From a virus: a stretch of DNA of 43,612 nucleotides. The notes under the pieces were generated by a model that was given only the letters and a program-made list of their open reading frames with translations, had not been told where the DNA came from and ran no database searches. This document shows positions 3,394 through 43,612 of the stretch, in pieces. The stretch is from IMG/VR virus record IMGVR_UViG_3300049573_000103, positions 1 to 43,612 of that record; one strand, written 5' to 3'. Each line of letters opens with the position of its first letter. The first letter of the stretch is position 1. The translations under genes were made by a program, and so were the position numbers.

Positions 3394-4355
3394 CCCACCC
3401 TCCTCACCGCATCCAGATCCGCGTGTTCGCGCAGCACGTGGCGCACCACGGCGGCGGCTTGGGCGCCGTAGACGTTGGCGGTGGTGGATTTCTTGGCGTG
3501 GCGGGCCAGGTGCTGGCCGGCTTCCAGGCCGAGGGTTTCCACCACGTCGCCCACGCGGCGGTGGCGCAGCAGTTGCGGGTTGAGGTGGGCGATGCCGGCG
3601 GCGGCGCCCAGGGTGCGGATGCGGTTGTAGGCCTGCTGGCGGGTGATGCGGGTGCCGCGGTTGCTCACGAACATGGCCTGCTCGCGCTCGGCGGCCATCG
3701 AATGGCGCACGGCCAGCCAGTCGGCCAGCCACGCCACGCTGCGCGCGTTGATCGGCACCACGGCCGGCTTGCCGCCCTTGCCCACCATGCACAGCTCGCC
3801 GCGCGCCAGATCCACGCTGTTGCGCGGGCGATACACCGGGCCGGGCAGGTCCAGCGCGGTGGCGTCGCTTACGCGCAGCGCGCCATCCAGCATCAGGCGC
3901 ATCATGGCGCGGTCGCGCAGCTGCATCGGCGTGCGCGTGGGCAGGGTTTCCAGCAGCTCCATCAGCGGGGCCAGCTCCGGCGCGATCTGCGGCAGCGCCA
4001 CGAAACGCACGTCGCTGTCTTTGGTCGGGTCGTGCTGCAGCCAGCCCTCGCGGTTGGCGTGCGCCACCAGTTGGCGCAGCACCACCAGCTTGCGCGCCTG
4101 GCTGCGCGGGGAAAGCCCGCGGTGGCCCAGCCGATCCAGCCAGCGCTCCACCAGGCGTTCGCCCAGCAGGCCGATCAGCTCCACGCCCTGCAGCGCGGCA
4201 AACTCGGCGAAGTCGTGCAAGTCGCCGCCGTAGGCCACCAGCGTGTTGATCGCCGCGCCGCGCAGGCGCTTGCGCTGCAGGTAGTGTTCGATCGCCTGCG
4301 CCATCGTCACGGGCGCCACGGCGTGGCCGGCCAGGGTGATGAGGTTGGCGGTCAT
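3390..4355 (-). CDS. Tyrosine recombinase 1 (XerC/XerD-like)
   Basis: 321 aa from ATG 4355. The SAM-like N-terminal domain is present. Catalytic motifs are ALRVSD (Arg), GKGGK (Lys), QLLRH (first His replaced by Gln) and HAKKSTTANVY (His...Tyr). Confidence 0.85.
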   Translation of the reverse strand: MTANLITLAGHAVAPVTMAQAIEHYLQRKRLRGAAINTLVAYGGDLHDFAEFAALQGVELIGLLGERLVERWLDRLGHRGLSPRSQARKLVVLRQLVAHANREGWLQHDPTKDSDVRFVALPQIAPELAPLMELLETLPTRTPMQLRDRAMMRLMLDGALRVSDATALDLPGPVYRPRNSVDLARGELCMVGKGGKPAVVPINARSVAWLADWLAVRHSMAAEREQAMFVSNRGTRITRQQAYNRIRTLGAAAGIAHLNPQLLRHRRVGDVVETLGLEAGQHLARHAKKSTTANVYGAQAAAVVRHVLREHADLDAVRRVG

Positions 4356-4561
4356 GGCTGGTCCTCGCCGGTGGTGTCGGCGGGCATGTCGCTGCGGTCG
4401 ATCCATTCCAGGAGCTTGGCGAGCAACCACCCGAACAGGGCGTAGAACGCGCCGAGGAAGGCCAACAACACGAGCAGGGCAAGAACCGGCGCCCAGCCAC
4501 CGCCGCAAGCCACGGCCGCGACGTAACCGATCACGACGAGTGCGATGATCTTGGTCTTCAT
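4352..4561 (-). CDS. Small membrane protein (2 predicted TM segments)
   Basis: MKTKIIALVVIGYVAAVACGGGWAPVLALLVLLAFLGAFYALFGWLLAKLL... The ATG is at 4561, with ATGA overlaps at both ends. Confidence 0.6.
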   Translation of the reverse strand: MKTKIIALVVIGYVAAVACGGGWAPVLALLVLLAFLGAFYALFGWLLAKLLEWIDRSDMPADTTGEDQP

Positions 4562-4800
4562 GCGACACCGCCCGTTTTGCGCAAGCCAAGGCCGGATATT
4601 TGCCACATGAACCGTGGCCCGCGCCGCCCACCGTTGCGGACGTAATCGCTGCGCCAGACGTACCGGCTGCGACGCATGTTGCTCAACGTCGCGCACACGA
4701 AATGGCGTGCGATGCCGGTCGCTGCTGCCAGCTCAGTGGATGTTGCCGGGCCGGCGCGGAGTTGCCGAAGAATGGTCCGCGCCTTGGTCGTGCGCGTCAT
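4558..4800 (-). CDS. Winged-helix DNA-binding protein
   Basis: 80-aa ORF. TILRQLRAGPATSTELAAATGIARHFVCATLSNM looks like a wHTH. There is an ATGA overlap. Confidence 0.7.
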   Translation of the reverse strand: MTRTTKARTILRQLRAGPATSTELAAATGIARHFVCATLSNMRRSRYVWRSDYVRNGGRRGPRFMWQISGLGLRKTGGVA

Positions 4801-4934
4801 TTCGCACCGCCCAGGCTGACCACGATCAGCGCGTCGATCAGCAGCAGGACCAGCACCACGGCAAAACCGATGCCCAGCGGCAGCACGGGGCTGGCCGGTG
4901 GCGCGCCGTGGCGGCGTTCCACGCGGGCGCTCAC
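4797..4934 (-). CDS. Possible small membrane protein (GTG start)
   Basis: GTGA overlap with the upstream stop at 4931-4934. The C-terminus is hydrophobic (LPLGIGFAVVLVLLLIDALIVV). The ORF is short and the start is uncertain. Confidence 0.35.
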   Translation of the reverse strand: MSARVERRHGAPPASPVLPLGIGFAVVLVLLLIDALIVVSLGGAK

Positions 4935-5122
4935 GACGCCACCGCTTGGAGCTGTTGCTGCAGCGAGTGCCATAGGCGCCGCGCGGCCTGCTCGGCCAGC
5001 GCTTGCTCGGTGAACAGGTTGCTGGTGCGGGCCTTGAGCGCGCCGCTGGGGCCGATTACCTGGCCGCGCCACAGGTTGCCTTCGCGCTCGCCGTGGAAAT
5101 AGACGTCCATGGGCTTTTTCAT
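4931..5122 (-). CDS. Hypothetical small protein
   Basis: MKKPMDVYFHGEREGNLWRGQVIGPSG... The ATG at 5122 is preceded by GGGAG. Confidence 0.6.
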   Translation of the reverse strand: MKKPMDVYFHGEREGNLWRGQVIGPSGALKARTSNLFTEQALAEQAARRLWHSLQQQLQAVAS

Positions 5123-5406
5123 GCGCGCGCTCCCGGCGTGTACCAGGCCGGCCGGAACCGTTCGCCGGCCAGGTCGCCCGCCATCAGCCACAGCGACGGC
5201 ACGGCCATCGCCTTGGCCATGGTTTCGATCTGGCGTGCGTCCGGCGGCGTGCTGCCGCCCATTTCCAGCGAGGCCAGCCGCTTGGGGGTAATGCCGGCGG
5301 CGGTGGCCAGATCCTCCGGCGCCAGCCGGGCGTGCTCGCGCGAGGCGCGCAGGCGCTGGGCGAAGCTGTCCGCGTGGGCGTTGTGCTGGCGGGTCTCGGC
5401 GCGCAT
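5119..5406 (-). CDS. XRE-family HTH protein
   Basis: This is the C-terminal 95 aa of ORF 5119..5973. FAQRLRASREHARLAPEDLATAAGITPKRLASLEMG is typical of an XRE HTH. Confidence 0.75.
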   Translation of the reverse strand: MRAETRQHNAHADSFAQRLRASREHARLAPEDLATAAGITPKRLASLEMGGSTPPDARQIETMAKAMAVPSLWLMAGDLAGERFRPAWYTPGARA

Positions 5407-5786
5407 CAGGCGAGCCTCCCGCGCGTGCTGGCTTCGCCCGCGATCATCAGCAGGTCGAACACCACGCCGCCCACGCTCAGCTTCCAGCCGGGCAGTTCCA
5501 GGTTCTTCAACGTGCCGGGAAACTCCCGGAACGCGGCCACCGCAGCGGCCTGCGCGCCCTTGGGCGTGATCACCGTGCACACCGGCATTTCGCGCGAGCC
5601 CTCGCGCCGCAGCGTCACCGCGTAGCTGCGCATCGTGCCGTGCGCCTGCACCATCTTGTGCAGCATGCCGCGCGTGCAGCCCAGGTCCGCCGCCACCGAT
5701 TTCAGGGTGGCCTTTGCCCGCTTCGCCGCTGCTACCGCTTCGGCGGCTGCCGCACAGCGTTCCGGCGTGGCCGGACCCACGTACAA
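5406..5786 (-). CDS. HTH-containing early protein. As sequenced it is separated from a likely upstream ATG (5853) by a +1 frame break at a C10 tract.
   Basis: ORF 5406..5786 starts at TTG directly after the C10 run. A different frame carries ATG 5851-5853, which overlaps the upstream stop as TGATG, and reads MEAPTTHPASDVATTTRRQPPP into the run. With C9 or C12 the two frames would fuse. Confidence 0.6.
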   Translation of the reverse strand: MYVGPATPERCAAAAEAVAAAKRAKATLKSVAADLGCTRGMLHKMVQAHGTMRSYAVTLRREGSREMPVCTVITPKGAQAAAVAAFREFPGTLKNLELPGWKLSVGGVVFDLLMIAGEASTRGRLA

Positions 5787-5796
5787 GGGGGGGGGG
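5787..5796. repeat. G10 homopolymer on the plus strand (C10 on the coding strand)
   Basis: Read directly as gtacaa-gggggggggg-ctgg. It is the longest homopolymer I saw in the window. Confidence 0.95.
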
Positions 5797-5852
5797 CTGG
5801 CGGCGCGTGGTGGTGGCCACGTCGCTGGCCGGGTGGGTGGTGGGCGCTTCCA

Positions 5853-6023
5853 TCAGCGCGCCCTCCCCTGCTTGGCCAGGCCGCCGAGGATCAGCGGGTA
5901 GCCGGGGCGGTGCAGGCGCAGCGCGTCGATCAGGCGCAGCGGCATGCAGGGGTACCAGCGCAGCAGCGCGCATTGCGCGGCGGCCAGTTGGCGGCGGCGC
6001 GAGGGTTGGGTTACAGTGGTCAT
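5853..6023 (-). CDS. Small hypothetical protein. An alternative long form starts at 6200.
   Basis: ATG 6023 is preceded by TTAGGAG. MTTVTQPSRRRQLAAAQCALLRWYPCMPLRLIDALRL... The longer form from 6200 has an ATGA overlap with the upstream gene but a low-complexity N-terminus. Confidence 0.6.
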   Translation of the reverse strand: MTTVTQPSRRRQLAAAQCALLRWYPCMPLRLIDALRLHRPGYPLILGGLAKQGRAR

Positions 6024-6057
6024 GTCTTCCGTACTCCTAAGCGCGGTGGGCACTTCC

Positions 6058-6094
6058 GAACGCCCGGGGTTGCCGCCCCGGGCGTTCTTCGTTT
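6058..6094 (+). terminator. Intrinsic-terminator-like hairpin oriented for plus-strand transcription
   Basis: gaaCGCCCGGGG-ttgccg-CCCCGGGCGttc forms a 12-bp stem and is followed by ttcgttt on the plus strand. On the minus strand no U-tract follows the stem (ggaagtg). Confidence 0.4.
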
Positions 6095-6196
6095 GGGCAG
6101 CAGACGCTGCGCTGATGGCCCGGCGGTGGGCGGTGGGGACCGTGGGGAGCGGGAAACCGCGATCCACCACCAGGCCATCAGCGAAACGTCCGGCGG

Positions 6197-6433
6197 TCAT
6201 TGCATGTAGTCCTCGACGCGGATGGCGGCGATCGCGTCATTGAGCGAACCGCGCGGCAGGCCGTAGGTTTCGCGCGCCGCCGCCATGGCCACCAGCGCCC
6301 GCCGCGCGGCGCGCCAGCGGTACACCGCCGCCAGTCTCGGGCGCCCTTCGCGCTGGGCGGTATCGGCCAGCACCTGCTGTTCCTGACAGGCATCCGCTGC
6401 TGCCGCCATGCCCTTGAAGCTGCGCCCGCGCAT
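6197..6433 (-). CDS. Hypothetical small protein
   Basis: ORF 6197..6436. ATG 6431-6433 overlaps the upstream TGA as TGATG. Composition is protein-like. Confidence 0.65.
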   Translation of the reverse strand: MRGRSFKGMAAAADACQEQQVLADTAQREGRPRLAAVYRWRAARRALVAMAAARETYGLPRGSLNDAIAAIRVEDYMQ

Positions 6434-7008
6434 CACTTCACGCTCCGCAGCGGCTGGCCGTCGACCACGCCCAGCACGTGCTGGTGGATGCTGCTTTTGA
6501 GCGTCACGGCGTAGGCCTGCAGCGCGTCCAGTTCGGCCAGCGCGGCGCTGGCGTGCGCGGCATCGCCGGCATCCATGCGGCCGTCGTCCAGCATCGGCGC
6601 CAGGCGGTTCACGGTGTCGCCCAGGTGGCGCAGCAGTTCGCCCAGCTGCTGTTGCTGGCCGGCGGGCGTGGGTTGCGGCTGCGGCGCGGCCAGTAGGCCC
6701 AGGCGGTGGCTCAGGTCCGCCAGCAGGTGGCTGCGGTACGGCTGCGGCAGCGCGAGGATCAGCGCCTCCTCGATGTCCACCGCCATGCGCACGCGGCCGT
6801 CCAGCATGCGCTTCACCGTCTGCCGGTTGGCCTCGCTGTCGGCGTACGGGTCGGCGCTGCTGGCAAAGGTCACGCTGCGCGCGTGCAGCGCGGTGCGCTC
6901 GTGGTACAGGTCCGCCACCGTCTGCGCGTAGGTGCGCTCGGTGAGCGCGCTGCGGCTGATGGCCAGCAGCACGTGCTCGGCAATGAGCTGGCTGCGCGAC
7001 TCACGCAT
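6433..7008 (-). CDS. Hypothetical early protein (possibly a CII-type regulator; weak)
   Basis: This is the real part of ORF 6433..7074, from ATG 7008 (MRESRSQLIAEHVLLAISRSALTERTYAQ...). Position downstream of the switch genes is the only functional hint. Confidence 0.65.
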   Translation of the reverse strand: MRESRSQLIAEHVLLAISRSALTERTYAQTVADLYHERTALHARSVTFASSADPYADSEANRQTVKRMLDGRVRMAVDIEEALILALPQPYRSHLLADLSHRLGLLAAPQPQPTPAGQQQQLGELLRHLGDTVNRLAPMLDDGRMDAGDAAHASAALAELDALQAYAVTLKSSIHQHVLGVVDGQPLRSVK

Positions 7009-7306
7009 GGCCGTGCACCCCGTGCACCAGCGCCAGGTCCATCGCCATGTCGGCGCTGGCCGCTTCAAAGGCATCGCACACCAGGTCCGGCGCAGTGCCC
7101 AGGCGGTAGGCGCGCTGGGTGAGCATCTCGGCGATGATCGCGTGCACGCCCTCCACGGTGGTCACGCCTTCGCGGCGGATGCGGGCATTCAACGCGCGCA
7201 GGGTCATGGCCTCGTGCGCGGTGGCGTGGGTCAGGCGCGCAAAGGCGCGGCGCTGGGCCTCGTTCATCGGTGGCATGCCGTCCGCTTCCAGCTGCAGTTC
7301 AGACAT
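7001..7306 (-). CDS. Hypothetical early protein
   Basis: ATG 7306 is preceded by CGGAGG. MSELQLEADGMPPMNEAQRRAFARLTH... Confidence 0.7.
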   Translation of the reverse strand: MSELQLEADGMPPMNEAQRRAFARLTHATAHEAMTLRALNARIRREGVTTVEGVHAIIAEMLTQRAYRLGTAPDLVCDAFEAASADMAMDLALVHGVHGHA

Positions 7307-8066
7307 GGGCTGAAACCTCCGGGTCAGGCGTGGCGGGGGCGCCGGTGGCAAGCTGAGCCATCGGTAACTTGCGGAGCGTTTCGTGATGGGTGCGCAGTTC
7401 GCGCAGGGTGTTCGGGCTCCAGCGCGGCCGGCCGGTGGGGCTGGGGATGGAACGTCCGTTCAGCATGTCCGCGACGCGGCGCAGGCTGATGCCGTGCTCC
7501 AGGTCATCCACCACGTCATCGCGCACCGGCCACGTTTCCGGGTCGCGCATCAGCCGGCGCTCGTCGCCCTCGCCCACCGCCACGCAACCGAACGGCACGT
7601 GGCCGTACACCCTGCCCTGCTCGCGAAGCGCGGCGTTGCACTCGGTGGCGCGCTGCACGGCCAGGTCGCGCTCGTACTGCGCAGCGGCCAGCTGAATGGT
7701 CAGGCTGAGCTTGCCGGCCGGCGTGCTGGAGTCGATCAGCTCGCTGATGCTGTGCACGGTGGCGCCGGTGCGCTCGGCCGTGCGGAAGAACGTGAGGCCG
7801 TCCAGCGCATCGCGGAACAGGCGGTCCAGGCGGATCACCACCACGCCCTGCGCGGCGCCGGCTTTCAGCGCGTCCAGCACCTGCCGGCCCCCTGCCCGCT
7901 TGGCCAGCGGCACGCTGGCACTCACGCCTTCGTCGGCGATCGCGTCCACCAGCGTGTGGCCGTGCAGGTCGCAATAGGCGATCAGGCGCGCGGTCTGCTG
8001 GCCCAGGCTCACGCCATCCTTGGCCTGCTCCTCGGTGGAGACGCGGATGTAGCCGATCAGCTTCAT
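7299..8066 (-). CDS. Serine recombinase (resolvase-type catalytic domain plus a recombinase domain; only 255 aa)
   Basis: MKLIGYIRVSTEEQAKDG... carries the catalytic Ser motif. It also has LDRLFRD and a C-terminal region like the large-serine-recombinase 'recombinase' domain (YGHVPFG...LNGRSIPSPTGRPRWSPNTL). I saw no zinc-ribbon or coiled-coil region. Confidence 0.9.
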   Translation of the reverse strand: MKLIGYIRVSTEEQAKDGVSLGQQTARLIAYCDLHGHTLVDAIADEGVSASVPLAKRAGGRQVLDALKAGAAQGVVVIRLDRLFRDALDGLTFFRTAERTGATVHSISELIDSSTPAGKLSLTIQLAAAQYERDLAVQRATECNAALREQGRVYGHVPFGCVAVGEGDERRLMRDPETWPVRDDVVDDLEHGISLRRVADMLNGRSIPSPTGRPRWSPNTLRELRTHHETLRKLPMAQLATGAPATPDPEVSAHV

Positions 8067-8359
8067 GCGGCTGCCCATATGCGTGGAATGGAAACGCGCC
8101 GGGCAAAGGCGCCAGTGGGCAGCCGAACATCCAGCGTGCGCCGCGGTGCACGCGCCGCCGCAGGAAAAATGTCCTCGATGTCGATATTGGGGAGCAGCTT
8201 GGTGATCGCGATCGCGCGCCGCGGCGACGGATGGTTGCGGTTGCATTCCCAGTCCGAAACGGCCTGCTTGGTCACGCCCAGCAGATCGGCAAGCGCCTGT
8301 TGCGTGAGGTTGGCGGCTTCCCGCGCATCGCGCAGGGCGGCGTTGGGCAAGGATTTCAT
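8063..8359 (-). CDS. XRE-family HTH protein (second copy of a tandem pair)
   Basis: MKSLPNAALRDAREAANLTQQALADLLGVTKQAVSDWECNRNHPSPRRAIAITKLLPNIDIEDIF. There are ATGA overlaps on both sides. Confidence 0.8.
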   Translation of the reverse strand: MKSLPNAALRDAREAANLTQQALADLLGVTKQAVSDWECNRNHPSPRRAIAITKLLPNIDIEDIFPAAARAPRRTLDVRLPTGAFARRVSIPRIWAAA

Positions 8360-8580
8360 GCGGCCGCCCTGCCCGACTCGGTCGGATAGATATGCTCGAT
8401 CTTGAGTCCCGGCAGCAGGCGGATCAGCGCCAGCGCCTTGCGCGGCGCCGGTTCGTCCGTGCCTGTCTCCCACCGCGACACCGCTCCCTTGCTGACGCCA
8501 AGGGCATCGGCGACGTTCTGCTGCGTGAGGCTTTTGCGCAGGCGCGCCTCTTTGATCGGATTGGGTTTCGCTGTGCTCAT
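8356..8580 (-). CDS. Cro-like XRE-family HTH protein (first gene of the minus-strand early operon)
   Basis: MSTAKPNPIKEARLRKSLTQQNVADALGVSKGAVSRWETGTDEPAPRKALALIRLLPGLKIEHIY. It is divergent from the CI-like gene and paralogous to 8063..8359. Confidence 0.8.
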   Translation of the reverse strand: MSTAKPNPIKEARLRKSLTQQNVADALGVSKGAVSRWETGTDEPAPRKALALIRLLPGLKIEHIYPTESGRAAA

Positions 8581-8659
8581 AGCTGAAGTTTCGGACAGCG
8601 CAACCCATTTGTCAAGTACAGCGCAACCACAAAGTTGCGCGCCTCTATACGCTTGCCGC
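8581..8659. promoter_or_regulatory. Divergent immunity switch region with operator-like repeats
   Basis: Palindrome GCGCAAC-N6-GTTGCGC at 8621-8640. The 11-bp direct repeat ACAGCGCAACC occurs at 8595-8605 and 8618-8628. On the minus strand there is a TTGACA at 8615-8610, and 17 nt further a GAAACT ending 6 nt before the cro-like ATG. Confidence 0.55.
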
Positions 8660-9010
8660 ATGAACACATTCGGCGGGCGGCTGCGAGCCGCTAGACATAA
8701 CGCCAACCTGACTCAGGAGCGCTTGGGGGAGCGCGTAGGGGTGAGCAAAGGCGCCATCTCCCGATGGGAGAGCGATCAGGACCAACCGCAGTTCGCGGTG
8801 CTGGAGCCACTTCGGTGCGCGCTGCGGGTTTCGCTTGACGAGCTGGTTTGTGGTTACATGCAAGGCACGGCTGGCGGCGTGGCGGACCCCTACGCCAAAC
8901 GCGACCCACCCAACACCGCTGAGTGGGCGCTGCTCATCCATCTTCGCCGCGAACCACCGTCAAAGCTTGGCGCGTTGCTGGAGTTTCTCGGGGTCCAGGT
9001 CGAATACTGA
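8660..9010 (+). CDS. CI-like repressor (XRE HTH; no S24 peptidase domain)
   Basis: MNTFGGRLRAARHNANLTQERLGERVGVSKGAISRWESDQDQP... is 116 aa and divergent from the cro-like gene. Confidence 0.8.
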   Translation: MNTFGGRLRAARHNANLTQERLGERVGVSKGAISRWESDQDQPQFAVLEPLRCALRVSLDELVCGYMQGTAGGVADPYAKRDPPNTAEWALLIHLRREPPSKLGALLEFLGVQVEY

Positions 9011-9027
9011 AAAATCAGGAGACAGGG

Positions 9028-9594
9028 ATGAGAATTCCGTTGGTGATGCTGTTGGTTTCGATCAGCACTATCGCGATGGCCGCACCGCCCGCGTCTGTGC
9101 AGGATCTGGCCGGCGCGCTGGCTGCGCCTCGCGATGCATGCGCGCAACAGGCACAGCGCGCGGCATCGGATGCGAGCACGGCCAATTACAAGGCGGGTCT
9201 GGATCTTCAGAACGCCCAGCTGCAGGCCGAGCTGGATGCTCGCGTTTACAGTGTGGGACATGGTCGCAGGGAAACGCGCGACTTCCTGCTGGAGCGGACA
9301 CGGCAGACCAATGCCGATTCGATCGCAACGACCCAACGCATCGCCGACAAGCTGCATGCCGATAGCCAGGCCGTGCTCGCCTGCGTAGCGGACGCCAAGG
9401 CGCAGGGGAAAACCCTGTACTCGACGTTCAAGGCCGACAAGCGCCACCACCGCGACATGCCTGAGGCCGAGGCGCTGATGACAGCATGGCTGACCAACGT
9501 GGCGGAAATCAGCACCAATCAGCCGCAGGGCAGCGACGAGTCGCTGGCGGGGTGGAAGAAGGCGAAGACGCACACGGAAGTGGCTGGTTTGTGA
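9028..9594 (+). CDS. Secreted protein (signal peptide); moron downstream of the repressor
   Basis: ATG 9028 follows AGGAGA. MRIPLVMLLVSISTIAMA|AP is signal-peptide-like. Local GC is lower than in the flanks. Confidence 0.75.
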   Translation: MRIPLVMLLVSISTIAMAAPPASVQDLAGALAAPRDACAQQAQRAASDASTANYKAGLDLQNAQLQAELDARVYSVGHGRRETRDFLLERTRQTNADSIATTQRIADKLHADSQAVLACVADAKAQGKTLYSTFKADKRHHRDMPEAEALMTAWLTNVAEISTNQPQGSDESLAGWKKAKTHTEVAGL

Positions 9595-9665
9595 TGCGGT
9601 ATCGTGCTTTCGACGCCAAGCGCCAGGCGGCGTTGTTGGAATTGATGAAGCCGTAGGAGAAAGCG

Positions 9666-10082
9666 ATGAAGGGAACTATCTTGATCATGGCATCGGCGCT
9701 GGTTCTTGCCGGGTGCGCGGCAGCACCATCTGCCGACAAGATTGCGGCGGCTGACTACGGTTCACCGATCAGCACGGCTGAGGCGGCGCAGCTAGCCACC
9801 GACTACATGAAACGCACGGCGAAAGACCCATATTCATTGATGGTGGAATGTGGCGATGTCACAAAAGGGTGGACGCAAAACAAGATTTCTGCGCGCAGTT
9901 TCTTCGCCGGTTATCTAATCGACTGCAGCGTCAACGGGAAAAATAGTTTCGGTGCCTACGTCGGTGCGAGGAACTATCGTTTCTCGATCCACAACGGGCA
10001 AATCGTCAGCGTGCTCGAACAGATGGATAACGGCTCTTTCGGTCCGCCAAGCATTGTCGACGCGTTGCGGAACGCACGGTAA
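9666..10082 (+). CDS. Lipoprotein; moron
   Basis: MKGTILIMASALVLAGC carries a lipobox. The gene is preceded by AGGAGA and is lower in GC. It converges on the spanin gene with a 5-nt gap. Confidence 0.8.
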   Translation: MKGTILIMASALVLAGCAAAPSADKIAAADYGSPISTAEAAQLATDYMKRTAKDPYSLMVECGDVTKGWTQNKISARSFFAGYLIDCSVNGKNSFGAYVGARNYRFSIHNGQIVSVLEQMDNGSFGPPSIVDALRNAR

Positions 10083-35380: not shown

Positions 35381-35778
35381 CCGCGCTGTTTCTCACAGGT
35401 GGCCGGTGCACTTCCATGCGCGCATGTGCCGCGGCGCCGGGCGGCGTGGCGGGCGGCGATGCGCTGCACCTGGGTGTGGCTCATGCACATGCGCCGCGCG
35501 ATTTCGCGCTGGCTCACGTCCTGGTCGAGCAGCGTGGTGATCATGTTTTCCAGCGTGGGGCCACCCAGCGCGTTGAAGAACGTGCGCCGCGATGGCACCC
35601 ACACCGCGCCGTTGCCGAATTCGTCCAGCACCACCATCAGCGCCTCCAGCCCGGCACGCTGGGCGATCAGCAGCCACAGCTCCTGCGTGGTCGATGGGTG
35701 ATGCACGGCGGCCGCGTCGAGCAACTGGCGCTCGAACGCGGTCGGGGCCTCACCCGGTCGGGAGAACACTGGATCCAT
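35377..35778 (-). CDS. DNA-binding protein with a C-terminal HTH
   Basis: 133-aa ORF. DVSQREIARRMCMSHTQVQRIAARH is HTH-like. It is the first gene of the packaging block. Confidence 0.6.
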   Translation of the reverse strand: MDPVFSRPGEAPTAFERQLLDAAAVHHPSTTQELWLLIAQRAGLEALMVVLDEFGNGAVWVPSRRTFFNALGGPTLENMITTLLDQDVSQREIARRMCMSHTQVQRIAARHAARRRGTCAHGSAPATCEKQRG

Positions 35779-36895
35779 GGCGCTTCCTCTCGAGGTCTTG
35801 GGCCCACAGGGGCAGGTCGTCGGGCACCGTGCCCAGCGCGGCGTGCTGGCGGTGCGCTTTCAGCGTGTAGCGGTTCATGCGGTTGCTCACCGCGAGGTAA
35901 CGGCGCGTGGTTTCGATGGACTCGTGGCCCATCAGCACGCGGATGCGCTCGATGTCGGTGCCGTCGTCGTAGAGCATCGTGGCGAAGGTGACGCGGAAGC
36001 GGTGCACGCCCCAGCTGCCCAGCCCGGCGCGGCGCGCGGTGCGCTTCACCGTGTCCTCGATGGACTTCACTGCCAGCGCGCTGCCCGGCACGCTCAGCCG
36101 GCCGCCACGCGACAGGTTCACGAAGACCGCATCCGTGCACAGCGACGGCAGCTTGCTGCGCACATCCAGCCATGCCAGCAGCTCTCGCACCACCGGCCCC
36201 TCGATCGGCACCGTGCGCTCCTTGCTGCCCTTGCCAAACACGTGCACCTGGCCCTTGCGATCGCTCGCCAGGTCCAGCTGGTGGACGCGAAGCTCGGTGA
36301 TCTCCTCGCGACGCAGACCGGCCGCGAGCAGCAGTAGCAGCATGGCCCGGTCGCGCTGCACGATCAGCTCGGATGTGCCCTGCTTCACTGCCGCGAACAG
36401 CGCGCGGAGCTGCGCCACGCTGTACTTTTTCGCCTGGGTGATCACCCGCTTCGGCGCCTTGTAGCCGCGCGTCACGTCCACGCCATCGCCGCGGGTGGCC
36501 AGGTAGCTGTACAGGCTCCGCACGGCCATCAGCGCGGACCGCCGTGCCGAGGCAGACAGCCGGCGCTTGACGTACAGCCACTTCTGCCAGTCATCCAGCT
36601 CACGCACCGTGATCTCGCGGAAATCGTGGCCCGCTTCCTCGGCCCAGCCCATGAACCGCGCCACGGCTTCGACGTAATCCGCCACCGTGGTCGCTCCACG
36701 GAACCCGCGCACCACGATCAGGCACTGCACCCACAGCCAGCACGTCGCCAGCCAGCGCGAATCGCGCCACGGTCGCGCCTCCACCGCCCGCATCGCCGAC
36801 GCCAGCGGCCCACCCTGGCCCAGCAACGTCGCACGCAGCTGCACCTCCTGCGGCGGCAGCACCAACCCAGCCGGAATCGGCGGTACTTCAACCAC
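35750..36895 (-). CDS. Tyrosine recombinase 2 (XerC/XerD / phage integrase family)
   Basis: 381 aa with a GTG start. The motifs are GLRREEITEL (Arg), GKGSKERT (Lys), HRFRVTFAT (H-x-x-R) and LMGHESIETTRRYL (His...Tyr). Confidence 0.85.
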   Translation of the reverse strand: MVEVPPIPAGLVLPPQEVQLRATLLGQGGPLASAMRAVEARPWRDSRWLATCWLWVQCLIVVRGFRGATTVADYVEAVARFMGWAEEAGHDFREITVRELDDWQKWLYVKRRLSASARRSALMAVRSLYSYLATRGDGVDVTRGYKAPKRVITQAKKYSVAQLRALFAAVKQGTSELIVQRDRAMLLLLLAAGLRREEITELRVHQLDLASDRKGQVHVFGKGSKERTVPIEGPVVRELLAWLDVRSKLPSLCTDAVFVNLSRGGRLSVPGSALAVKSIEDTVKRTARRAGLGSWGVHRFRVTFATMLYDDGTDIERIRVLMGHESIETTRRYLAVSNRMNRYTLKAHRQHAALGTVPDDLPLWAQDLERKRHGSSVLPTG

Positions 36896-37219: not shown

Positions 37220-37828
37220 TCATAGGGAAAGCCCAAGGGAAACAGCGATCTGGCGGCGTATCTCGGCCACAGCCTCAGGCTCCTGGCCACGTGGGATCGG
37301 GCGATGGACGCGCGCTGGCAGCGCCTGCCTGATCGGCTCGTCGAGGGTTTCACCTCGCGCCAAGCGATCGAGCGCCGTGCGGTACGCCACGTCGAACGCG
37401 GTGCGCACCGCTCGCTCGTCGAGCGTGCGCAGGTTCCACGTGCCAACCGATCGCGCTGCGGCGCCGATGGCTGGATGCGTGAACTCGTGGTCGGTGTTGC
37501 GCGACCAAGCCAACGCCTCGCGCAACGCCTGCTGCAGATCCGGCGCCAATGGCCGGCACAGCGCAATGAACTCCTCGTCGCTCGGTGGCCAACCCGTGCC
37601 GACCTTCGACAACGCCGCCAGCCCCAGCTTGGTCGCATCGGCTGAAACGCCAGCCGCGCGCAGCGAGGCAAACCACACACCGCGGGCATGCGGATCTTCG
37701 AACCTGTCCCGCCAGCGCTGGCCGTACTTGCGCTGGAAGATCGCGAACACCTGCGCCACGGCCATGCGCAGCGCCTGGTCCTCAGCGAGTGCCGGCGAAT
37801 TCGCGGCTGAGCTGATCACCTCGCTCAT
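37220..37828 (-). CDS. Lambda P-like replication protein (helicase loader)
   Basis: ATG 37828 is preceded by GGAGGTG. ...DRLARGETLDEPIRQALP and WPPSDEEFIALCR resemble lambda P (RINRGEAIPEPVKQLP; LPSPGQFVAWCR) as I recall it. Confidence 0.7.
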   Translation of the reverse strand: MSEVISSAANSPALAEDQALRMAVAQVFAIFQRKYGQRWRDRFEDPHARGVWFASLRAAGVSADATKLGLAALSKVGTGWPPSDEEFIALCRPLAPDLQQALREALAWSRNTDHEFTHPAIGAAARSVGTWNLRTLDERAVRTAFDVAYRTALDRLARGETLDEPIRQALPARVHRPIPRGQEPEAVAEIRRQIAVSLGLSL

Positions 37829-38645
37829 AGCCACCTCCGGTGTTGGTGTTGGTTTCAGCCGTTGCCGGCACGCCGGCGATCACGTCGTCGACGAAGCACG
37901 CGAGGAACCCCAGGTTTACCGGGTGCTGACTGCGCTGCTGTTCGCGTTTCCGCTTGGCCCGGCGCATGGCCTCGGCCAGGTTGGCATCGGTGAGCCCGTG
38001 GGCCAGCCACTCGGTCAGCTTGCCGCGGTTCATCGTGCGGATGCCGATGTGCGCCGGGATGCCCTGATCGGCGACCCATGCCCAAAAACCACCGGCATCA
38101 ATGATCGCGCCCGCCTGCTCGCGCACGGTGCGCGTAGTAGGTGACTTTAGACTTGGGTTACAAGAATCTGCAGAAGCATCGGAGAAATCGCAGTTGCTCT
38201 GCTCTTTCTCCTCTGTGGGAGTTACGCCGTTACGTGTGACGCCAGTAACGGGAATAACGCCGTTATTATCGGGTCGAGGAGCACCCGCTTTTGCACGCTT
38301 CAGCTTCTCCCGATGCCGCCTCTGCCGGGCCGCATTGGTGGCGTCCAGCTTGACCGGCTGTTTCTCCAGCCAGTCGCTTATCTCGCCGTCGACAATCAAC
38401 CCGCGATCGCGGATGGCGTCGACAACGGCCGTGATCTGCTCCAGGCGCCAGCCGGTGAAATCGGCCAGGGCATGAGCATCGAACGCGGTCACCGTGCCCC
38501 GTGGCGAGGCCTTCGAAGCGCACTCCTTGAGGTAGCCCCACACCACGAAGACGTGACCGGGTGTAACACCGTTACCAGCTACCCTGGCCACGCCAAGCCA
38601 GCGCGGATCGCAGACCTCACCGTGGTATTGGCGGAACCAATCCAT
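37782..38645 (-). CDS. Replication initiator / replisome organiser (lambda O-like role)
   Basis: 287-aa ORF immediately upstream of the P-like gene. Its central linker coincides with a DNA iteron cluster and an AT-rich stretch. Confidence 0.65.
   Translation of the reverse strand: MDWFRQYHGEVCDPRWLGVARVAGNGVTPGHVFVVWGYLKECASKASPRGTVTAFDAHALADFTGWRLEQITAVVDAIRDRGLIVDGEISDWLEKQPVKLDATNAARQRRHREKLKRAKAGAPRPDNNGVIPVTGVTRNGVTPTEEKEQSNCDFSDASADSCNPSLKSPTTRTVREQAGAIIDAGGFWAWVADQGIPAHIGIRTMNRGKLTEWLAHGLTDANLAEAMRRAKRKREQQRSQHPVNLGFLACFVDDVIAGVPATAETNTNTGGGYERGDQLSREFAGTR
38141..38273. other. Candidate origin of replication inside the O-like gene (AT-rich stretch plus iterons)
   Basis: 38221-38273 reads gTTACGCCGTTACgtgtgacgccaGTAACGGgaaTAACGCCGTTATtatc, which contains ACGCCGTTA twice plus an inverted GTAACGG. 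38141-38220 is markedly AT-richer than the genome. Related copies lie at 38563-38575 (GTAACACCGTTAC) and 38905-38914 (ACGCCGTTAC). Confidence 0.5.
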
Positions 38646-38792
38646 CAGCGCGTACCCGACGCTGAAAGCGCTGGGTCATGCGCTGCGCATCCCGACGTGG
38701 CAGGATGGCAATGCGAGGCGGCAAGCCACGCAAGGCGTTGTGCAGAAAAGACTTCCCACATAAGGCTCGTCCTGAGCCGGTGCGCGAACTGA

Positions 38793-38820
38793 TCCTGTCA
38801 AACTGTATATTATGTAAAAT
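38793..38820 (+). other. dif-like recombination site (degenerate left arm, TGTATA centre, XerD-type right arm); candidate attP or resolution site
   Basis: 38804-38820 reads TGTATA-TTATGTAAAAT against the canonical dif TGTATA-TTATGTTAAAT (16/17). The left 11 nt, TCCTGTCAAAC, are unlike the XerC arm GGTGCGCATAA. Confidence 0.6.
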
Positions 38821-38921
38821 CACGCCAGATTCGGCGGGTTTTACATCGGAATCAGAAGCTTACCGGCTTTTGACGGGTCCACTTTTGGACCCGATGTGTG
38901 ATACCACGCCGTTACAGTCAA

Positions 38922-39971
38922 ATGCAGCTGCCTGCTGGCAAGGGCGAGCTGCTGCATGTGGATTCGCAGGATGCGCTGGCGCGGTTTGCGCGCATCCTGT
39001 CGGGTAGTCGGGCGCCCACGACGGTTCGGCTGTACGTTGGCGTGGTGCGTCGGTGGCTGGCTTACGGTGGAGCGGCAGACCGGCTCGATGCCGCCCTGCT
39101 GCAACGGTGGTTGAGCGATCGTCGCCGGCAGCACGCCGCGCCGGCGACGATCAACGTGGATATCAAGGCGCTGCGCGCGTTCTACGACACGATGGCGCTG
39201 ATCGGTGCCGCTCCGCAAGCAGAATCGAATAATTGTCCAAAAGGGCGACGCGTACCGGTGCGCCTGGTGCGCTGCTTCAGCGATGAACAGGTGCTGGCGA
39301 TGCTGGCGGCTCCCGATGTGTGCACGTTCGCCGGCTACCGCGACAGCGTGATGATGCGCACGTTGTGGGAGACCGGCCTGCGCGCCAGCGAGCTGGTCGG
39401 GCTGGGCCTGGGCGACGTGCTGCCCGATGCGGTGTACGTGGCCGCCGGCAAGGGTGGGCGCAGCCGCTGGGCGCCGATCAGCGCGGAGCTGCATGGCCTG
39501 CTGGTCGGCTACATGGCACTGCGCGCCACCACGCGCCCCGGCAAGCGCACGGCGCTGTGGGTGACGGCGGCAGGTCGCGCCCTGCGCAGCCGGCGCAGCG
39601 TATGGGCCATCGTGAGCCGCTGGGCGCGCGCCACGCTGGGCGGCGCCGTAGGGTATGACCGCGTGCGCCGCGCGGCGCGGCAGCGGCCATGGAGCGGGCA
39701 ATACCCGCACCTGCTGCGCGCCAGCATGGCCACTACCCTGCTCCGCAACGGCTGTCCCCTGCCCGCCATCATGCAGATGCTCGGCCACACCAGCCTCGAT
39801 AGCACCGCGCGCTACCTGGCCGCGGACATCAGCCATTTGCGTGCAGCGATCGACAAACATCCGCGCAACCATCGGTCAGCCCGCCCTGGCGAGTCGCCCG
39901 CGCCGGCGGGCGTGGCAGGATCCAGCGATCCACAAGGGGGAGTCGGGCAAGGCGCGGAGCCCGACCAGTAG
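38922..39971 (+). CDS. Tyrosine recombinase 3 (XerC/XerD-like). It is the only plus-strand gene outside the CI operon. An alternative GTG start lies at 38898.
   Basis: The motifs are GLRASEL (Arg), AGKGGRSR (Lys), PHLLRASMAT (H-x-x-R) and MLGHTSLDSTARYL (His...Tyr). A SAM-like N-terminal domain is present (VRLYVGVVRRWLAY...INVDIKALRAFY). Confidence 0.85.
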   Translation: MQLPAGKGELLHVDSQDALARFARILSGSRAPTTVRLYVGVVRRWLAYGGAADRLDAALLQRWLSDRRRQHAAPATINVDIKALRAFYDTMALIGAAPQAESNNCPKGRRVPVRLVRCFSDEQVLAMLAAPDVCTFAGYRDSVMMRTLWETGLRASELVGLGLGDVLPDAVYVAAGKGGRSRWAPISAELHGLLVGYMALRATTRPGKRTALWVTAAGRALRSRRSVWAIVSRWARATLGGAVGYDRVRRAARQRPWSGQYPHLLRASMATTLLRNGCPLPAIMQMLGHTSLDSTARYLAADISHLRAAIDKHPRNHRSARPGESPAPAGVAGSSDPQGGVGQGAEPDQ

Positions 39972-40429: not shown

Positions 40430-42351
40430 GCAGCCCTCGCGTAGAACTCGATCAGGTCGGCCAGGTCGTTGGCTACCTCGGCCGCCGCCATGTCCGGGCA
40501 GACGCTGTTGCCGATCAGGCGCACCTGGTCGGTCTTGGTGACCTGGCGCCACTCGTATTCGCCGCTGCCTGGTGCGGTTTCGAACAGGCCTCGGTCGATG
40601 ATGTAGCTGTCGGGGAAGCCCTGCGCCCGGGCGAGCTCGCGCGGCACCAGCATGCGCAGCGTGATGTCGGCCAGCACGTAGCCGCCCAGCAGCACCATGC
40701 CGGCGGGATCGGGGAAGTGCTCCGGCAGGTACTCGTGCAGGAAGTCGGCCACCGCCTTGGCGCGTTCGCGCAGCTCCGGCGCCAGCGTGTCGGCCGGCAC
40801 CTGCACGCACTGGATCAGGCCCATGCGGTCCTTCGTCGGCACCGTGTGCATCGGCTCGTCGCAGCCCTGCCACTGGCCGCCCTCGCCGTAATACTTGACC
40901 AGGTAGGCCGACACCAGCCGCTGGTTGGCTCCGCTGGCGCAGATGGTCGACACCGGATCGCGCAGGTCGCGGCCGTCGCCGTCGTAGAAACCGCCGTTGG
41001 CTTGCTCAAGGAAGGCGGAGACCGGCCCGAGGGCATGGGCCGCGCCAGCGGGGCGCTTCATGGCGCCGCCGGCGGTGATCGTATGCATCGGATCGTTCAG
41101 CGAGCTGCCCACGCTGTTGAAGCGGAACTTGGTGATATGGGCGGCGACCAGCGCGTGCTTCACGCCACCAGCCACCACCGTGCCCAACGGCTTGCCGATG
41201 TCCAGCGCGCGCGGTTCTTGCCCTTCCCGCTCGCCGTAGCCGGTCTGGACCAGCGCCGGCGCCACCAGCGAGAAATGCCCGCCCTTGATCTGAGCCACCT
41301 GCGTGCGCAGCGGATCGTCTGCCGGGAACACTCGCTGGCTGCTGCCGTTCGCGTGCTCGGTCAAGTAGGGCGTGACCAGCGCGTGGTGTGTGCCGCCACC
41401 CGTGATCGTGCTCAGCGGCTGGTCGATGGCGTGCGTCGATGTGTGCGCCTCGCTGGTGCCGCGGAGCGGCACGATGAACGGCTGCGGGCAGTTCAGCACG
41501 TAGCGCCACATGCCTTTCGCGATGCGCTTGAGCGTATTGGTCGCCAGCGGCTTCTTGCGGCCGAAGATCGAGCGCGCCGGCAGGCTGAAGTCGATGCACT
41601 CGGCGGCGGTGCGGTAAGGTTTCAGCTTGCCGGCCGCCACGGCTTTGCTGTCCTGCGCCGCATGAGTGTCCGGGCTCCAGGTGATCGGTCGGCCGTCGCG
41701 GCGGAACTTGATCACCAACCGTTTGCGGATGGTCTTGGCGCCCTTGTCGCACGCCCGGATTTCGCGCCAGTCGGCGGTGTAGCCCAGGCCGCGCACCAGC
41801 GCCGCGCGCGGCACTGCATCGCCCAGGAACTCCACGATCTCGTCCATGGCGGGGTGGTCATCGGCCAGGCCTTTGGTCATCACGTCGATGAACGCCCGGA
41901 ACGTCTCGCCCTTGCGCTCGGCGATCGCGCTGCCGCTGTCGTCCAGCGGGCACCAGTGGATGAACTCCTCCACGTTCTCCATCTCGATCACGCGCGGGGT
42001 GGCGAAGTAGCCCCAGCGCACCACCACCCAAGCCAGCCCGCGGATGCGCTTGCTGCGCGGCGCCTTGCCCTTGGCCTTGCTGTGGTGCCGGCAGTCCGGC
42101 GATGCCCACAGCAGGCCCACCGGCCGGCCCCGCGTAGCAGCCAGCGGGTCGACCTCGAACACGTCCGCCTGGTAGTGCTCGGTATGCGGGTGGTTGGCAC
42201 GGTGCACGGCGATCGCGATGGCGTTGTGGTTCACCGCCACGTCGGGCTCGCGGTAGGCGCGGGCGATGCCGGTGGACGCGCCGCCGCCGCCGGCGAACAG
42301 GTCCACCACCAGTTCCTGGTCGAAGTTGAGGAAGGCGGTCCCGTCAGCCAT
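40426..42351 (-). CDS. DNA (cytosine-5) methyltransferase with an unusually long, internally repetitive variable region
   Basis: 641 aa from ATG 42351. The motifs are DLFAGGGG (I), SPDC (IV), ENV (VI), QGFPDSY (IX) and GNSV (X). About 250 aa between motifs VIII and IX carry 6-7 repeats of (D/K)xP(L/M)xT(I/V)...LV. Confidence 0.9.
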   Translation of the reverse strand: MADGTAFLNFDQELVVDLFAGGGGASTGIARAYREPDVAVNHNAIAIAVHRANHPHTEHYQADVFEVDPLAATRGRPVGLLWASPDCRHHSKAKGKAPRSKRIRGLAWVVVRWGYFATPRVIEMENVEEFIHWCPLDDSGSAIAERKGETFRAFIDVMTKGLADDHPAMDEIVEFLGDAVPRAALVRGLGYTADWREIRACDKGAKTIRKRLVIKFRRDGRPITWSPDTHAAQDSKAVAAGKLKPYRTAAECIDFSLPARSIFGRKKPLATNTLKRIAKGMWRYVLNCPQPFIVPLRGTSEAHTSTHAIDQPLSTITGGGTHHALVTPYLTEHANGSSQRVFPADDPLRTQVAQIKGGHFSLVAPALVQTGYGEREGQEPRALDIGKPLGTVVAGGVKHALVAAHITKFRFNSVGSSLNDPMHTITAGGAMKRPAGAAHALGPVSAFLEQANGGFYDGDGRDLRDPVSTICASGANQRLVSAYLVKYYGEGGQWQGCDEPMHTVPTKDRMGLIQCVQVPADTLAPELRERAKAVADFLHEYLPEHFPDPAGMVLLGGYVLADITLRMLVPRELARAQGFPDSYIIDRGLFETAPGSGEYEWRQVTKTDQVRLIGNSVCPDMAAAEVANDLADLIEFYARAA

Positions 42352-43159
42352 GCGCCCTGCTCCCCGCCAGCAGATCCACGAACCACGGCGTGTGTCCTGC
42401 CGGCAGCTTGCGCAGGTCGACGTGGATCGCGTGGGTGATGATGAAGTTACGCAGCGCCTGGTTGGTGACGCGCCAGGGTGCGCGGCCGTCCGGGGTTGGC
42501 TGGTGGGTGGGGTCGCGTTCGGCGGCGAGCATGCCCAGGTGGATCCAGCGCGTGACGGTGGTGGGATCGTGGCCGAGCAGGCTGGCGACCTCGCGGGCGG
42601 TGTAGTCGTCCTCGCGCGGGTCGCGCTGGATCGCGCGGCGTTTGCGTTGCACGACAATCGCAGCTTCGGTGCGGCGGAAGCCCTGGCGCCGCAGTGCGTG
42701 TTGCACACCGGCGGGCCGCAGGTTGCGGGTGGCGCGCAGGATGTCCAGTTCCGCCGGGCTCCACGGTGTCTCGCGGAAACGCGGGGTGGTAAGGCCAAGG
42801 TCGCGCGCCCGGCGGCTCACCCACCACACCGGCCGCTCCAGGCGCTTGGCCAGCGCCACCACGTCGCCGCGCTGCATCGGGCGCTGATGCGCGGTGCGGA
42901 TGGCCTCATCCATGCCCGGCTCCAGCGTCCACGACTCGCGCACCAGCGGCTGGCTGGCGCAGCGCAGGCCCAGCGCGTTGGCATGCTGGTAGATCGCCGA
43001 CCGGCTGCGGTGCGGCAGCAGCGCGATCACGCCATTGATGCCGCCCTGCGGGTATGTCTCGCGCAGCACGCGGATCTCGCGCGTGGTCCAGGCCGCGCGG
43101 CTGATGGGCTGGGGGTGCGACATGCTGATGGAAGCGGTGCCGTCAGGCATGGGGCGCAT
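42344..43159 (-). CDS. DNA-binding protein with three Myb/SANT-like repeats and an excisionase/MerR-type HTH. An alternative start lies at 43123.
   Basis: The repeats are W(T/S)..E...L and the HTH is YTAREVASLLGHDPTTVTRWIHLGML. The start is uncertain because neither ATG has a well-spaced RBS. Confidence 0.6.
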   Translation of the reverse strand: MRPMPDGTASISMSHPQPISRAAWTTREIRVLRETYPQGGINGVIALLPHRSRSAIYQHANALGLRCASQPLVRESWTLEPGMDEAIRTAHQRPMQRGDVVALAKRLERPVWWVSRRARDLGLTTPRFRETPWSPAELDILRATRNLRPAGVQHALRRQGFRRTEAAIVVQRKRRAIQRDPREDDYTAREVASLLGHDPTTVTRWIHLGMLAAERDPTHQPTPDGRAPWRVTNQALRNFIITHAIHVDLRKLPAGHTPWFVDLLAGSRAHG

Positions 43160-43612
43160 CCTCCGGCCGCGGCAGCCCGAACACTTCCTCCAGACGCACC
43201 AGCAGCCGCCGCAGTTCGGTGGTCATCAGGAACAGGGTGGCGGTGGCTTCGTCGTGGGCGTCCTGCAGGCTGTCGCCAAGCGTGTCCAGCACCACGTCGA
43301 GGAAGCGCAGTTTGTGCAGCACCAGGTCTTCGCCCAGCACAAAGCTGATGCGGTCGTCGTAGACCAGGCCAAGCTTGAACACCTGCTTGCCGCTGCGCAG
43401 GTGTTCCTTGACCTCCTCGGCGTCCATGTCCTGCCGGCGGGCACGGATGACGGCGCCGGCGGCGGTGGCGGGGTCGCGCAGTTCGCACTCGTCGCCCAGG
43501 GCGAAGCCGGCCGGCAGGCGGCCGGTGGCCAGCCAGTCGGTCAGCAGTACGCGCGGGCCTTCCTCCGGTGCCGGCGGCACGGCGGGGAAGCTGCCCAGCG
43601 CCTCGCGCCAGC
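43143..43612 (-). CDS. rdgC: RdgC homologue, C-terminal part (joins 1..587 on the circular map; 43486-43612 duplicates 1-127)
   Basis: ...VLLTDWLATGRLPAGFALGDECELRDP...GAVIRARRQDMDAEEVKEHLRSGKQVFKLGLVYDDRISFVLGEDLVLHKLRF parallels E. coli RdgC (...LTEWVRSG...GFQLLDEAELK...GGVIRAKKQDLTSEEI..HIEAGK.VTKLAL.W..RI.FV...DGSLKRLKF). Confidence 0.85.
   Translation of the reverse strand, partial: WREALGSFPAVPPAPEEGPRVLLTDWLATGRLPAGFALGDECELRDPATAAGAVIRARRQDMDAEEVKEHLRSGKQVFKLGLVYDDRISFVLGEDLVLHKLRFLDVVLDTLGDSLQDAHDEATATLFLMTTELRRLLVRLEEVFGLPRPEDAPHA
43486..43612. repeat. Second copy of the 127-bp terminal direct repeat
   Basis: Identical to 1-127 by direct comparison. Confidence 0.95.

Follow-up and report, generated by a model that had tools for sequence, protein, structure and literature searches.

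Hijacking of dif has hitherto been seen as a strategy of small elements without an integrase, namely inoviruses, microviruses, double jelly-roll (DJR) phages, satellites and islands. The phages that target dif are described as filamentous, microvirus-like or DJR, and as ones that "lack an endogenous integrase" (PMC12715192; PMC5357621; PMC6744903), and "int-type" and "dif-type" lysogeny are treated as alternatives (PMC12715192). The DJR phages of Vibrio are reported to have 17-bp half-dif attPs with either arm but no integrase (PMC12715192). LME-1 of Legionella, a phage-like integrative mobile element exploiting Xer recombination (IMEX) with a dif-mimicking att site, uses the host XerL (PMC9765430), and DUF3653 is a domain of XafT, the XerD activator of the TLCphi-type IMEXs, which cluster at dif (PMC6744903). 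The present analysis concerns a dif-like site and the adjacent gene for a tyrosine recombinase, termed Rec3, in the IMG/VR virus record IMGVR_UViG_3300049573_000103, whose whole stretch of 43,612 nucleotides is called the window below. The site is very probably the attP core of a temperate, siphovirus-like phage with dif as its integration target and Rec3 as the putative integrase. The searchable literature yielded no description of a dif-targeting tailed phage that encodes an Xer-like integrase of its own, but its coverage is incomplete and an earlier account is possible; a paper on Xylella prophages makes no mention of dif, and the papers naming the related Microcystis phage MACPNOA1 did not surface in searches on dif.

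The attP and its integrated counterparts

The site at positions 38793-38820 of the window reads TCCTGTCAAAC-TGTATA-TTATGTAAAAT (left arm, central region and right arm). The 17-mer formed by its central region and right arm (38804-38820, TGTATATTATGTAAAAT) is identical at 16 of 17 positions to the central region and XerD arm of the Escherichia coli dif (GGTGCGCATAATGTATATTATGTTAAAT; PMC3603311; PMC3025954) and at 17 of 17 to the reconstructed dif of the host. It is the sole match in the window at up to three mismatches, with 0.01 expected from shuffles, and 15 of its 17 bases are A or T in a genome of 68% GC. The dif mimic had been proposed from the letters alone in an initial annotation of the window, which gave the sequence and coordinates exactly and rightly considered a chance match unlikely. 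The site is located between the divergent replication-initiator and Rec3 genes, and the open reading frame (ORF) of Rec3 begins 78 bp (GTG at 38898) or 102 bp (ATG at 38922) downstream, close to the 100 bp given in that annotation. It sits in one of the two lowest-GC islands of the window and not, as had been stated, in the only AT-rich intergenic island. The other, equally low in GC (0.46-0.48 per 100 nt), is found at ~9790-9960, between the serine recombinase and endolysin genes.

Rec3 was scanned against one genome from each bacterial species, and matches came from Rhodanobacter glycinis, Dyella sedimenti, D. amyloliquefaciens and D. ginsengisoli. Phage homology begins at window positions 38804-38864 in all four genomes (exactly at 38804 in D. 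ginsengisoli), with non-phage DNA to the left, and runs to the right through Rec3 and across the window ends into the early region. The left junctions in these genomes read host-A(T/C)T(T/G)CGCATAA|TGTATA|TTATGTAAAAT-phage, which is a complete 28-bp site. Both prophage ends are present in a lysogen on the IMG/VR contig 3300024996_000144 (45,330 bp), the Rec3 of which is 96% identical to that of the window. In this lysogen, attL (locus L007) reads ...ctatcttta ATTTCGCATAA TGTATA TTATGTAAAAT cgcgccagattcgg... and attR (L017) reads ...gaactga TCCTGTCAAAC TGTATA TTATGTAAAAT atagaatacatc...; the former, beside the Rec3 gene, is a full 28-bp dif by sequence, and the latter consists of the phage arm, the central region and the XerD arm. 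A metagenome scan with the predicted empty site as the pattern yielded the contig Ga0207702_10075957 (L028), in which the left flank (97% over 327 nt) and the right flank (97% over 219 nt) of the lysogen are joined with only the 17-bp core between them. The empty attB on this contig is ATTTCGCATAATGTATATTATGTAAAAT (ATTTCGCATAA-TGTATA-TTATGTAAAAT), a perfect 28-bp dif that shares 17 of its 28 bp, the central hexamer and the XerD arm, with attP. In the free-phage contigs L012 and L008 (96% identity) and L010 (77%), attP is arranged as in the window.

As judged by comparison of these att sequences, the dif-like site is shown to be the attP of a tailed temperate phage integrating at dif, with exchange within the 17-bp identity. 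Since the core is the same in attL and attR of the only complete lysogen, 17 bp is the finest resolution available for the crossover. One hypothesis of the initial annotation, an attP mimicking dif, had predicted junctions at the core flanked by the host XerC half, and such junctions were found; two of the checks proposed with it gave concordant results, integrated copies being mapped to the dif core in R. glycinis, three Dyella species and the 96% lysogen contig, and the host site, matched at 17 of 17 positions, being a perfect 28-bp dif of the Xanthomonadales type when empty. In two further metagenome loci (L024 and L027), the same host left flank (92%) and a dif identical to that of L028 are present, and on the right side the similarity ends 14 nt past the XerD arm, a pattern suggestive of strain variation or of a further insertion immediately beyond dif.

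The three parts of attP (all given on the plus strand) differ in their origin and conservation. The left arm TCCTGTCAAAC (38793..38803) is phage-specific and matches the host XerC arm ATTTCGCATAA at only 4 of 11 positions, in agreement with the earlier remark that the XerC-arm position is not XerC-like; it is kept in attR of the lysogen, on the side of the replication genes. The central region TGTATA (38804..38809), the putative strand-exchange or overlap zone, is identical in attP, attB, attL and attR and equals the central region of the host dif. The XerD-type right arm TTATGTAAAAT (38810..38820) is identical to the XerD arm of the host dif and varies in close relatives only as TTATGT[A/C/T]AA[A/G][T/C], a pattern that genuine XerD arms of Xanthomonadales dif also show (PMC2731167 Table S1). 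Among nine independent attPs, the mean pairwise identity is 0.82 for the central region, 0.83 for the right arm, 0.46 for the left arm and 0.23-0.32 for flanking 11-mers. The loose consensus of the left arm over these nine, nCCTAAAcCAA, is unrelated to XerC arms, and the left arm is read here as a weak, family-specific half-site.

The attB fits the Xanthomonadales-type dif tabulated in PMC2731167, in which the reverse complement of the Xanthomonas citri dif is ATTTCGCATAA TGTATA TTATGTCAAAT and the X. oryzae dif ends in ...TTATGTAAAAC (PMC2731167 Table S1). In D. ginsengisoli (L004), a 6.5-kb inovirus (3423-9923; Rep_trans, inovirus coat B, Zot and a weakly DUF3653-like last ORF) lies between an XerC-arm half-dif (ATTGCGCATAA TGTATA gacgtg) and the full dif that forms attL of the tailed prophage; this locus is a mixed array of an inovirus and a siphovirus at dif. 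On a metagenome scaffold (L038; ERZ28597395), an inovirus (1-2915; DUF2523 and Zot) with a terminal DUF3653 (XafT-like) gene abuts attL, and the dif-type site ACTTCGCATAA TGTACA TTATGTAAGAT precedes a Rec3-family gene of 46% identity. Because these two prophages adjoin filamentous-phage IMEXs, the target is taken to be the host dif. The GC skew around 14 metagenomic dif loci was higher on the left than on the right in about 8 of 9 independent loci, and its positive-to-negative trend was weak. Another tyrosine recombinase gene and a gene for a KfrA_N protein were observed 0.6-2 kb to the left of dif in L001 (6469-8600) and L004 (764-2841), with 74% identical DNA, and may represent the dif-proximal end of yet another integrase-bearing element. 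In L037 (1-745), only the KfrA_N gene is present, at the edge of the locus.

Rec3 and the dif-type sites of its family

Rec3 (tyrosine recombinase 3; 38898..39971, plus strand) matches Pfam Phage_integrase (PF00589, 2.6e-21) and Phage_int_SAM_1, and it is the candidate dif-specific integrase of the phage. Its motifs GLRASEL, GKGG, PHLLRAS, LGHTS and ARYL align to the R-K-HxxR-H-Y positions of XerA, and the catalytic motifs are intact. The NCBIfam scores of Rec3 are 124.5 bits for XerC (cut-off 335), 117.7 for XerD (329.6), 38 for XerS (267) and 100.7 for XerA (220). Rec3 is not an XerC or XerD orthologue, and the earlier term "Xer-like" holds for a simple tyrosine recombinase with motifs that align to XerA and not for membership in the XerC or XerD families, the cut-offs of which lie far above its scores.

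Rec3 is the first gene of every integrated prophage found, and a Rec3-family gene is terminal in L001-L004, L007, L021, L037, L038 and L040. A dif-type site is located 60-180 bp upstream of the gene in every Rec3-family member with enough upstream sequence, over an identity range of 39-96% and a phage GC range of 43-68%. In free phages (the window, L012, L008, L010, MACPNOA1, L039 with 39% identity, L167, L168, L170, L172 and L173), a non-dif arm is followed by the central region and TTATGT..., and in prophages (L001-L004, L007, L021, L037, L038, L040, L171 and L174), a site with a full XerC arm has host DNA or DNA of another element to its left. The Thioalbus denitrificans prophage L021 carries AGTTCGCATAA TATAGA TTATGTTAAAT, with another central region. 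This linkage, together with the position at the prophage end, points to Rec3 as the putative integrase.

The association is specific to the Rec3 family, because among 51 phage tyrosine recombinases that are more distant (each with at least 200 nt of upstream sequence) just 2 have the motif [N6]TTATGTNAA upstream and because tblastn of Rec1, Rec2 (two further tyrosine recombinases of the window, described below) and Rec3 against 120 other viral contigs with the same 16-nt core gave no homologue, a positive control having worked. One member of the family is the Microcystis phage MACPNOA1 (L020, KY697807.1 36902-42473), deposited as a cyanophage, in which the Rec3-family integrase has 47% identity and the region has 68% GC. 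Beside this integrase, a half-dif attP of the Xanthomonadales type, ACCTAAGCCAC TGTATA TTATGTCAAAC, was observed. The GC content of Microcystis is ~42-43%, and because of this disparity the true host of MACPNOA1 is probably an associated proteobacterium.

Flanking elements of attP and the phage genome

To the right of the XerD arm, several elements precede the Rec3 gene on the plus strand. An accessory Xer-type half-site, GTTTTACATCG (38838..38848), is inverted relative to the XerD arm and lies 17 nt away from it; ATGTAAAA at 38812-38819 pairs with TTTTACAT at 38839-38846 as an inverted repeat of 8 out of 8. A TTT(T/C)AC block is present at the position of this half-site in all aligned relatives (ATTTCACGTAA in L010 and L009), with a spacing of 17-19 nt from the XerD arm. 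An inverted partial copy of the left arm, TTTTGACGGG (38868..38877), belongs to a second inverted repeat, I1 (38787-38802 and 38869-38884, 75% over 16 nt), and is weakly conserved in relatives. Both inverted copies had been described previously and are indeed present, the second with the wider extent given here. Just upstream of the Rec3 start lies a palindrome or hairpin, CGGGTCCA-N4-TGGACCCG (38874..38893), the stem of which is conserved in most relatives and the loop variable; in L004, GGGTCCA-N4-TGGACCC shows one compensatory change (GGGTCCG...CGGACCC). A block of ~30 nt after the palindrome, GATGTGTGATACCACGCCGTTACAGTCAA (palindrome and block together within 38874-38921), hardly varies, even at what would be wobble positions, and it overlaps the GTG start codon of Rec3. 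The palindrome is a probable regulatory element, and together with the invariant block it resembles an operator or a hairpin of the 5' untranslated region that would govern integrase expression. For the elements to the right of the XerD arm as a whole, roles as accessory recombinase sites and in the control of int expression are both plausible.

A further motif, GGTGCGCGAAC at 38779-38789, had been noted as an 8/11 match to the E. coli XerC arm. The match is present but most likely irrelevant, and its reading as a displaced XerC arm is rejected, since the host arm is ATTTCGCATAA, the register of the motif does not fit and the 77% relative has not conserved it. A different likeness concerns the dif listed for X. 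campestris ATCC 33913 and 8004, TCCTGACATAA TATACA TTATGCGAAAT (PMC2731167 Table 1), the arm TCCTGACATAA of which is 8/11 identical to the phage left arm TCCTGTCAAAC but is found on the other side of the central region; the likeness may be coincidental or may reflect a common degenerate half-site. Megablast of the locus against GenBank phages gave no match.

The window carries an exact 127-bp direct repeat at its ends (1-127 and 43486-43612) and thus represents a circular assembly of a 43,485-bp genome; an RdgC-like gene (43143-43580, minus strand) is split across the window ends. The phage is tailed and siphovirus-like, since a tape-measure protein, a central tail fibre J-like protein, a minor tail protein and a portal are encoded, and its host is probably a member of the Rhodanobacteraceae. 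The genome also encodes a GH108 endolysin, a C5 methyltransferase, and a replication initiator with a P-like helicase loader (37220-38645, minus strand). The replication-initiator-like gene (37782..38645, minus strand; PHROG 3729 replication initiation protein, 4.5e-07) closes the gene order of the prophage beside attR, which lies ~160 bp beyond the start of this gene in L017 and L018. A possible excisionase or directionality factor (42344..43159, minus strand) has weak matches to PHROG 2907 excisionase (3.1e-05) and to Pfam HTH_17 (5.2e-04, below its cut-off).

Besides Rec3, two tyrosine recombinases that are divergent from it and from each other are encoded on the minus strand, Rec1 (3390-4631), in which Q replaces the first His of the HxxR motif, and Rec2 (35750-36895), as well as a serine recombinase (7299-8246, minus strand). 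The Thioalbus prophage has a Rec1 homologue (41% identity) and L039 a Rec2-like gene (31%); several recombinases may be a trait of the Rec3 phage lineage. The word GGGNAGGG, which is similar to the FtsK-orienting polar sequences (KOPS), occurs once on the plus strand and nine times on the minus strand, pointing toward attL. This skew is not significant when compared with similar G-rich words (p ~0.06), and it is not used as evidence because such words are already distributed 64:103. Nearly all genes lie on the minus strand; once integrated, genes and KOPS would point toward attL, co-directional with replication.

Proposed recombination mechanism and comparison with described systems

A possible route of integration can be proposed. 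Rec3 would recognise the phage-specific left arm and act at the Xer-type cleavage positions flanking the central region, with strand exchanges at the borders of the 6-bp central region, as in the established Xer/tyrosine-recombinase mechanism. In that case the phage would supply the XerD arm of attL, and the variant arm TTATGTAAAGT of L012 would enter the dif of its lysogen. The host would presumably keep a working dif after integration. FtsK-activated XerCD should be unable to excise the prophage because XerC would not bind the degenerate arm of attR, and protection from XerCD excision has been argued likewise for difGGI (PMC5357621).

Rough personal estimates were made of which proteins catalyse these steps. 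Catalysis by Rec3 alone on all four half-sites is given slightly less than an even chance, and the joint action of Rec3 with host XerD, plus XerC on dif, is held to be possible with about one chance in three. One tentative form of the latter, of a similar or slightly lower standing, is a mixed virus-host tetramer that bypasses FtsK, in which Rec3 would be an XerC surrogate on the left arm, host XerD would occupy the XerD arm, and XerC and XerD would occupy dif. Because the outer halves of the right arm are degenerate in some relatives of 43-46% identity, there is a slight lean toward Rec3 itself reading TTATGT(A/C), and because the XerD arm is perfect in the lineage of the window, the hybrid Rec3-XerD model is kept alive. 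Catalysis by host XerCD alone is thought improbable. The same low standing is given to a classical IMEX route, in which host XerC and XerD alone would integrate the phage through its half-dif attP and Rec3 would serve for excision only or be unrelated. Such a route operates in Vibrio inoviruses and DJR phages, which integrate through full or 17-bp half-dif attPs without an integrase (PMC12715192); in addition, many IMG/VR contigs have a half-dif of the central region and XerD arm without a Rec3 homologue, and an XerD arm identical to that of the host would bind host XerD. However, Rec3 and the site remain linked in relatives of as little as 39% identity and in hosts whose dif central regions differ, and Rec3 occupies the canonical position of int beside attP at the prophage end. 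Furthermore, the attP is devoid of the XerC arm that most IMEX pathways need, its left arm is conserved at the family level and unrelated to XerC arms, and a search of the window for the XafT/DUF3653 activator found none.

A self-contained dimer-resolution module, similar to Cre/loxP or XerS/difSL and acting on an episomal prophage or on replicating phage DNA, would account for a recombinase gene that adjoins an asymmetric 11-6-11 site as in XerS/difSL, for the location beside the replication module and for the circular assembly of the window. As a primary role it is very improbable, since integration is documented by copies with both junctions and by an empty attB; moreover, the ORFs scanned in the window include no gene for partition or plasmid maintenance. 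As a secondary role, the resolution of phage multimers is conceivable. The least credible readings are a chance AT-rich promoter in a divergent intergenic region and a remnant of a hybrid att site. The former would fit the divergent orientation of the neighbouring genes and the TTGACA (minus strand) and TAAAAT-like hexamers within the site, but a sigma-70-type promoter scan of the intergenic region found none, and neither reading fits a 17-mer that is conserved while its flanks diverge and that forms the exact recombination junction. A remnant is also at odds with the two flanks in the window, both of which are phage DNA identical to other free-phage contigs. The episomal resolution site and the hybrid remnant had been the second and third hypotheses of the initial annotation, and both are contradicted by the integrated copies and the identical attP in free phages.

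Several observations weigh against integration at dif by Rec3. The status of the host site as the unique terminus dif rests on its sequence, the IMEX arrays and a weak GC-skew trend. The phage also has the two further tyrosine recombinases and the serine recombinase described above, and the conservation of the left arm is only modest (0.46). In the relatives L167, L171, L172 and L174 (43-46% identity), the right arm keeps only TTATGT(A/C) and is otherwise degenerate (TTATGTAGAAA, TTATGTACTAG, TTATGTCATCA and TTATGTAATGT), so that attL of phages of this type would be an imperfect dif. Finally, the integrase-less Vibrio IMEXs with 17-bp half-dif attPs (PMC12715192) imply that host XerCD could in principle suffice.

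The attP of a temperate phage that integrates at dif, with Rec3 as the putative integrase, nevertheless remains the best explanation of the site. The Rec3 lineage, with prophages in Rhodanobacter, Dyella and Thioalbus genomes and on metagenome contigs, would represent widespread tailed phages that combine int-type and dif-type lysogeny, each with a dedicated Xer-like integrase (as proposed for Rec3) and with dif as attB. It could serve as a natural system for the retargeting of Xer-family enzymes and their possible cooperation with XerC and XerD, and it exemplifies an insertion of 43 kb at the terminus after which dif is still complete by sequence. It also brings tailed and filamentous prophages together at a single site, where they may compete or cooperate, and it offers a practical rule by which dif sites and the borders of prophages can be located in Proteobacteria that are poorly studied.

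Compared with the described systems, the Rec3 phage shares with IMEXs the integration at the chromosomal dif by means of a dif-mimicking attP (attP, attL, attR and the empty attB having all been recovered), the regeneration of a complete dif at one junction with a degenerate arm at the other, and the tandem arrays with other dif-integrating elements (L004 and L038). In contrast to IMEXs, which are filamentous, satellite or island elements and are described as having no recombinase (PMC12715192; PMC6744903), it is a tailed double-stranded DNA phage of 43.5 kb whose gene for a tyrosine recombinase is intact and lies 78 bp from the site; by its gene content, the Rec3 phage is not an element with "no recombinase of its own", one of the properties by which IMEXs are defined. 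The XerD arm is kept and the XerC arm is degenerate, whereas CTX, TLC, the gonococcal genomic island (GGI) and the Xanthomonas filamentous phages show the reverse (PMC5357621) and the XerC arm is the one retained by most characterised IMEX attPs; unlike the TLCphi-type IMEXs, the window has no XafT/DUF3653 gene. The Vibrio DJR prophages with 17-bp "armed" attPs are similar in that a half-dif attP of one arm and the central region suffices to target dif (PMC12715192), but they are non-tailed, ~13 kb in size and without an integrase, with xafT as the terminal gene (PMC12715192). Contrary to the dichotomy drawn in PMC12715192, the Rec3 phage would be both int-type and dif-type.

As in lambda-style int-attP modules, the integrase gene adjoins attP and is terminal in the prophage, an identity core is common to attP and attB, and direct repeats of this core bound the prophage. 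The target, however, is dif and not a tRNA or protein gene, the integrase is of the short XerC/D type (a SAM-like and a catalytic domain) with no arm-binding domain detected, and the core follows the 11-6-11 layout of Xer sites. The arrangement of a recombinase gene beside an asymmetric dif-type site is shared with XerS/difSL, XerH/difH and XerL/dif; XerS, XerH and XerL are chromosomal housekeeping enzymes for dimer resolution, whereas Rec3 is phage-borne and appears to target a dif of the XerCD type.

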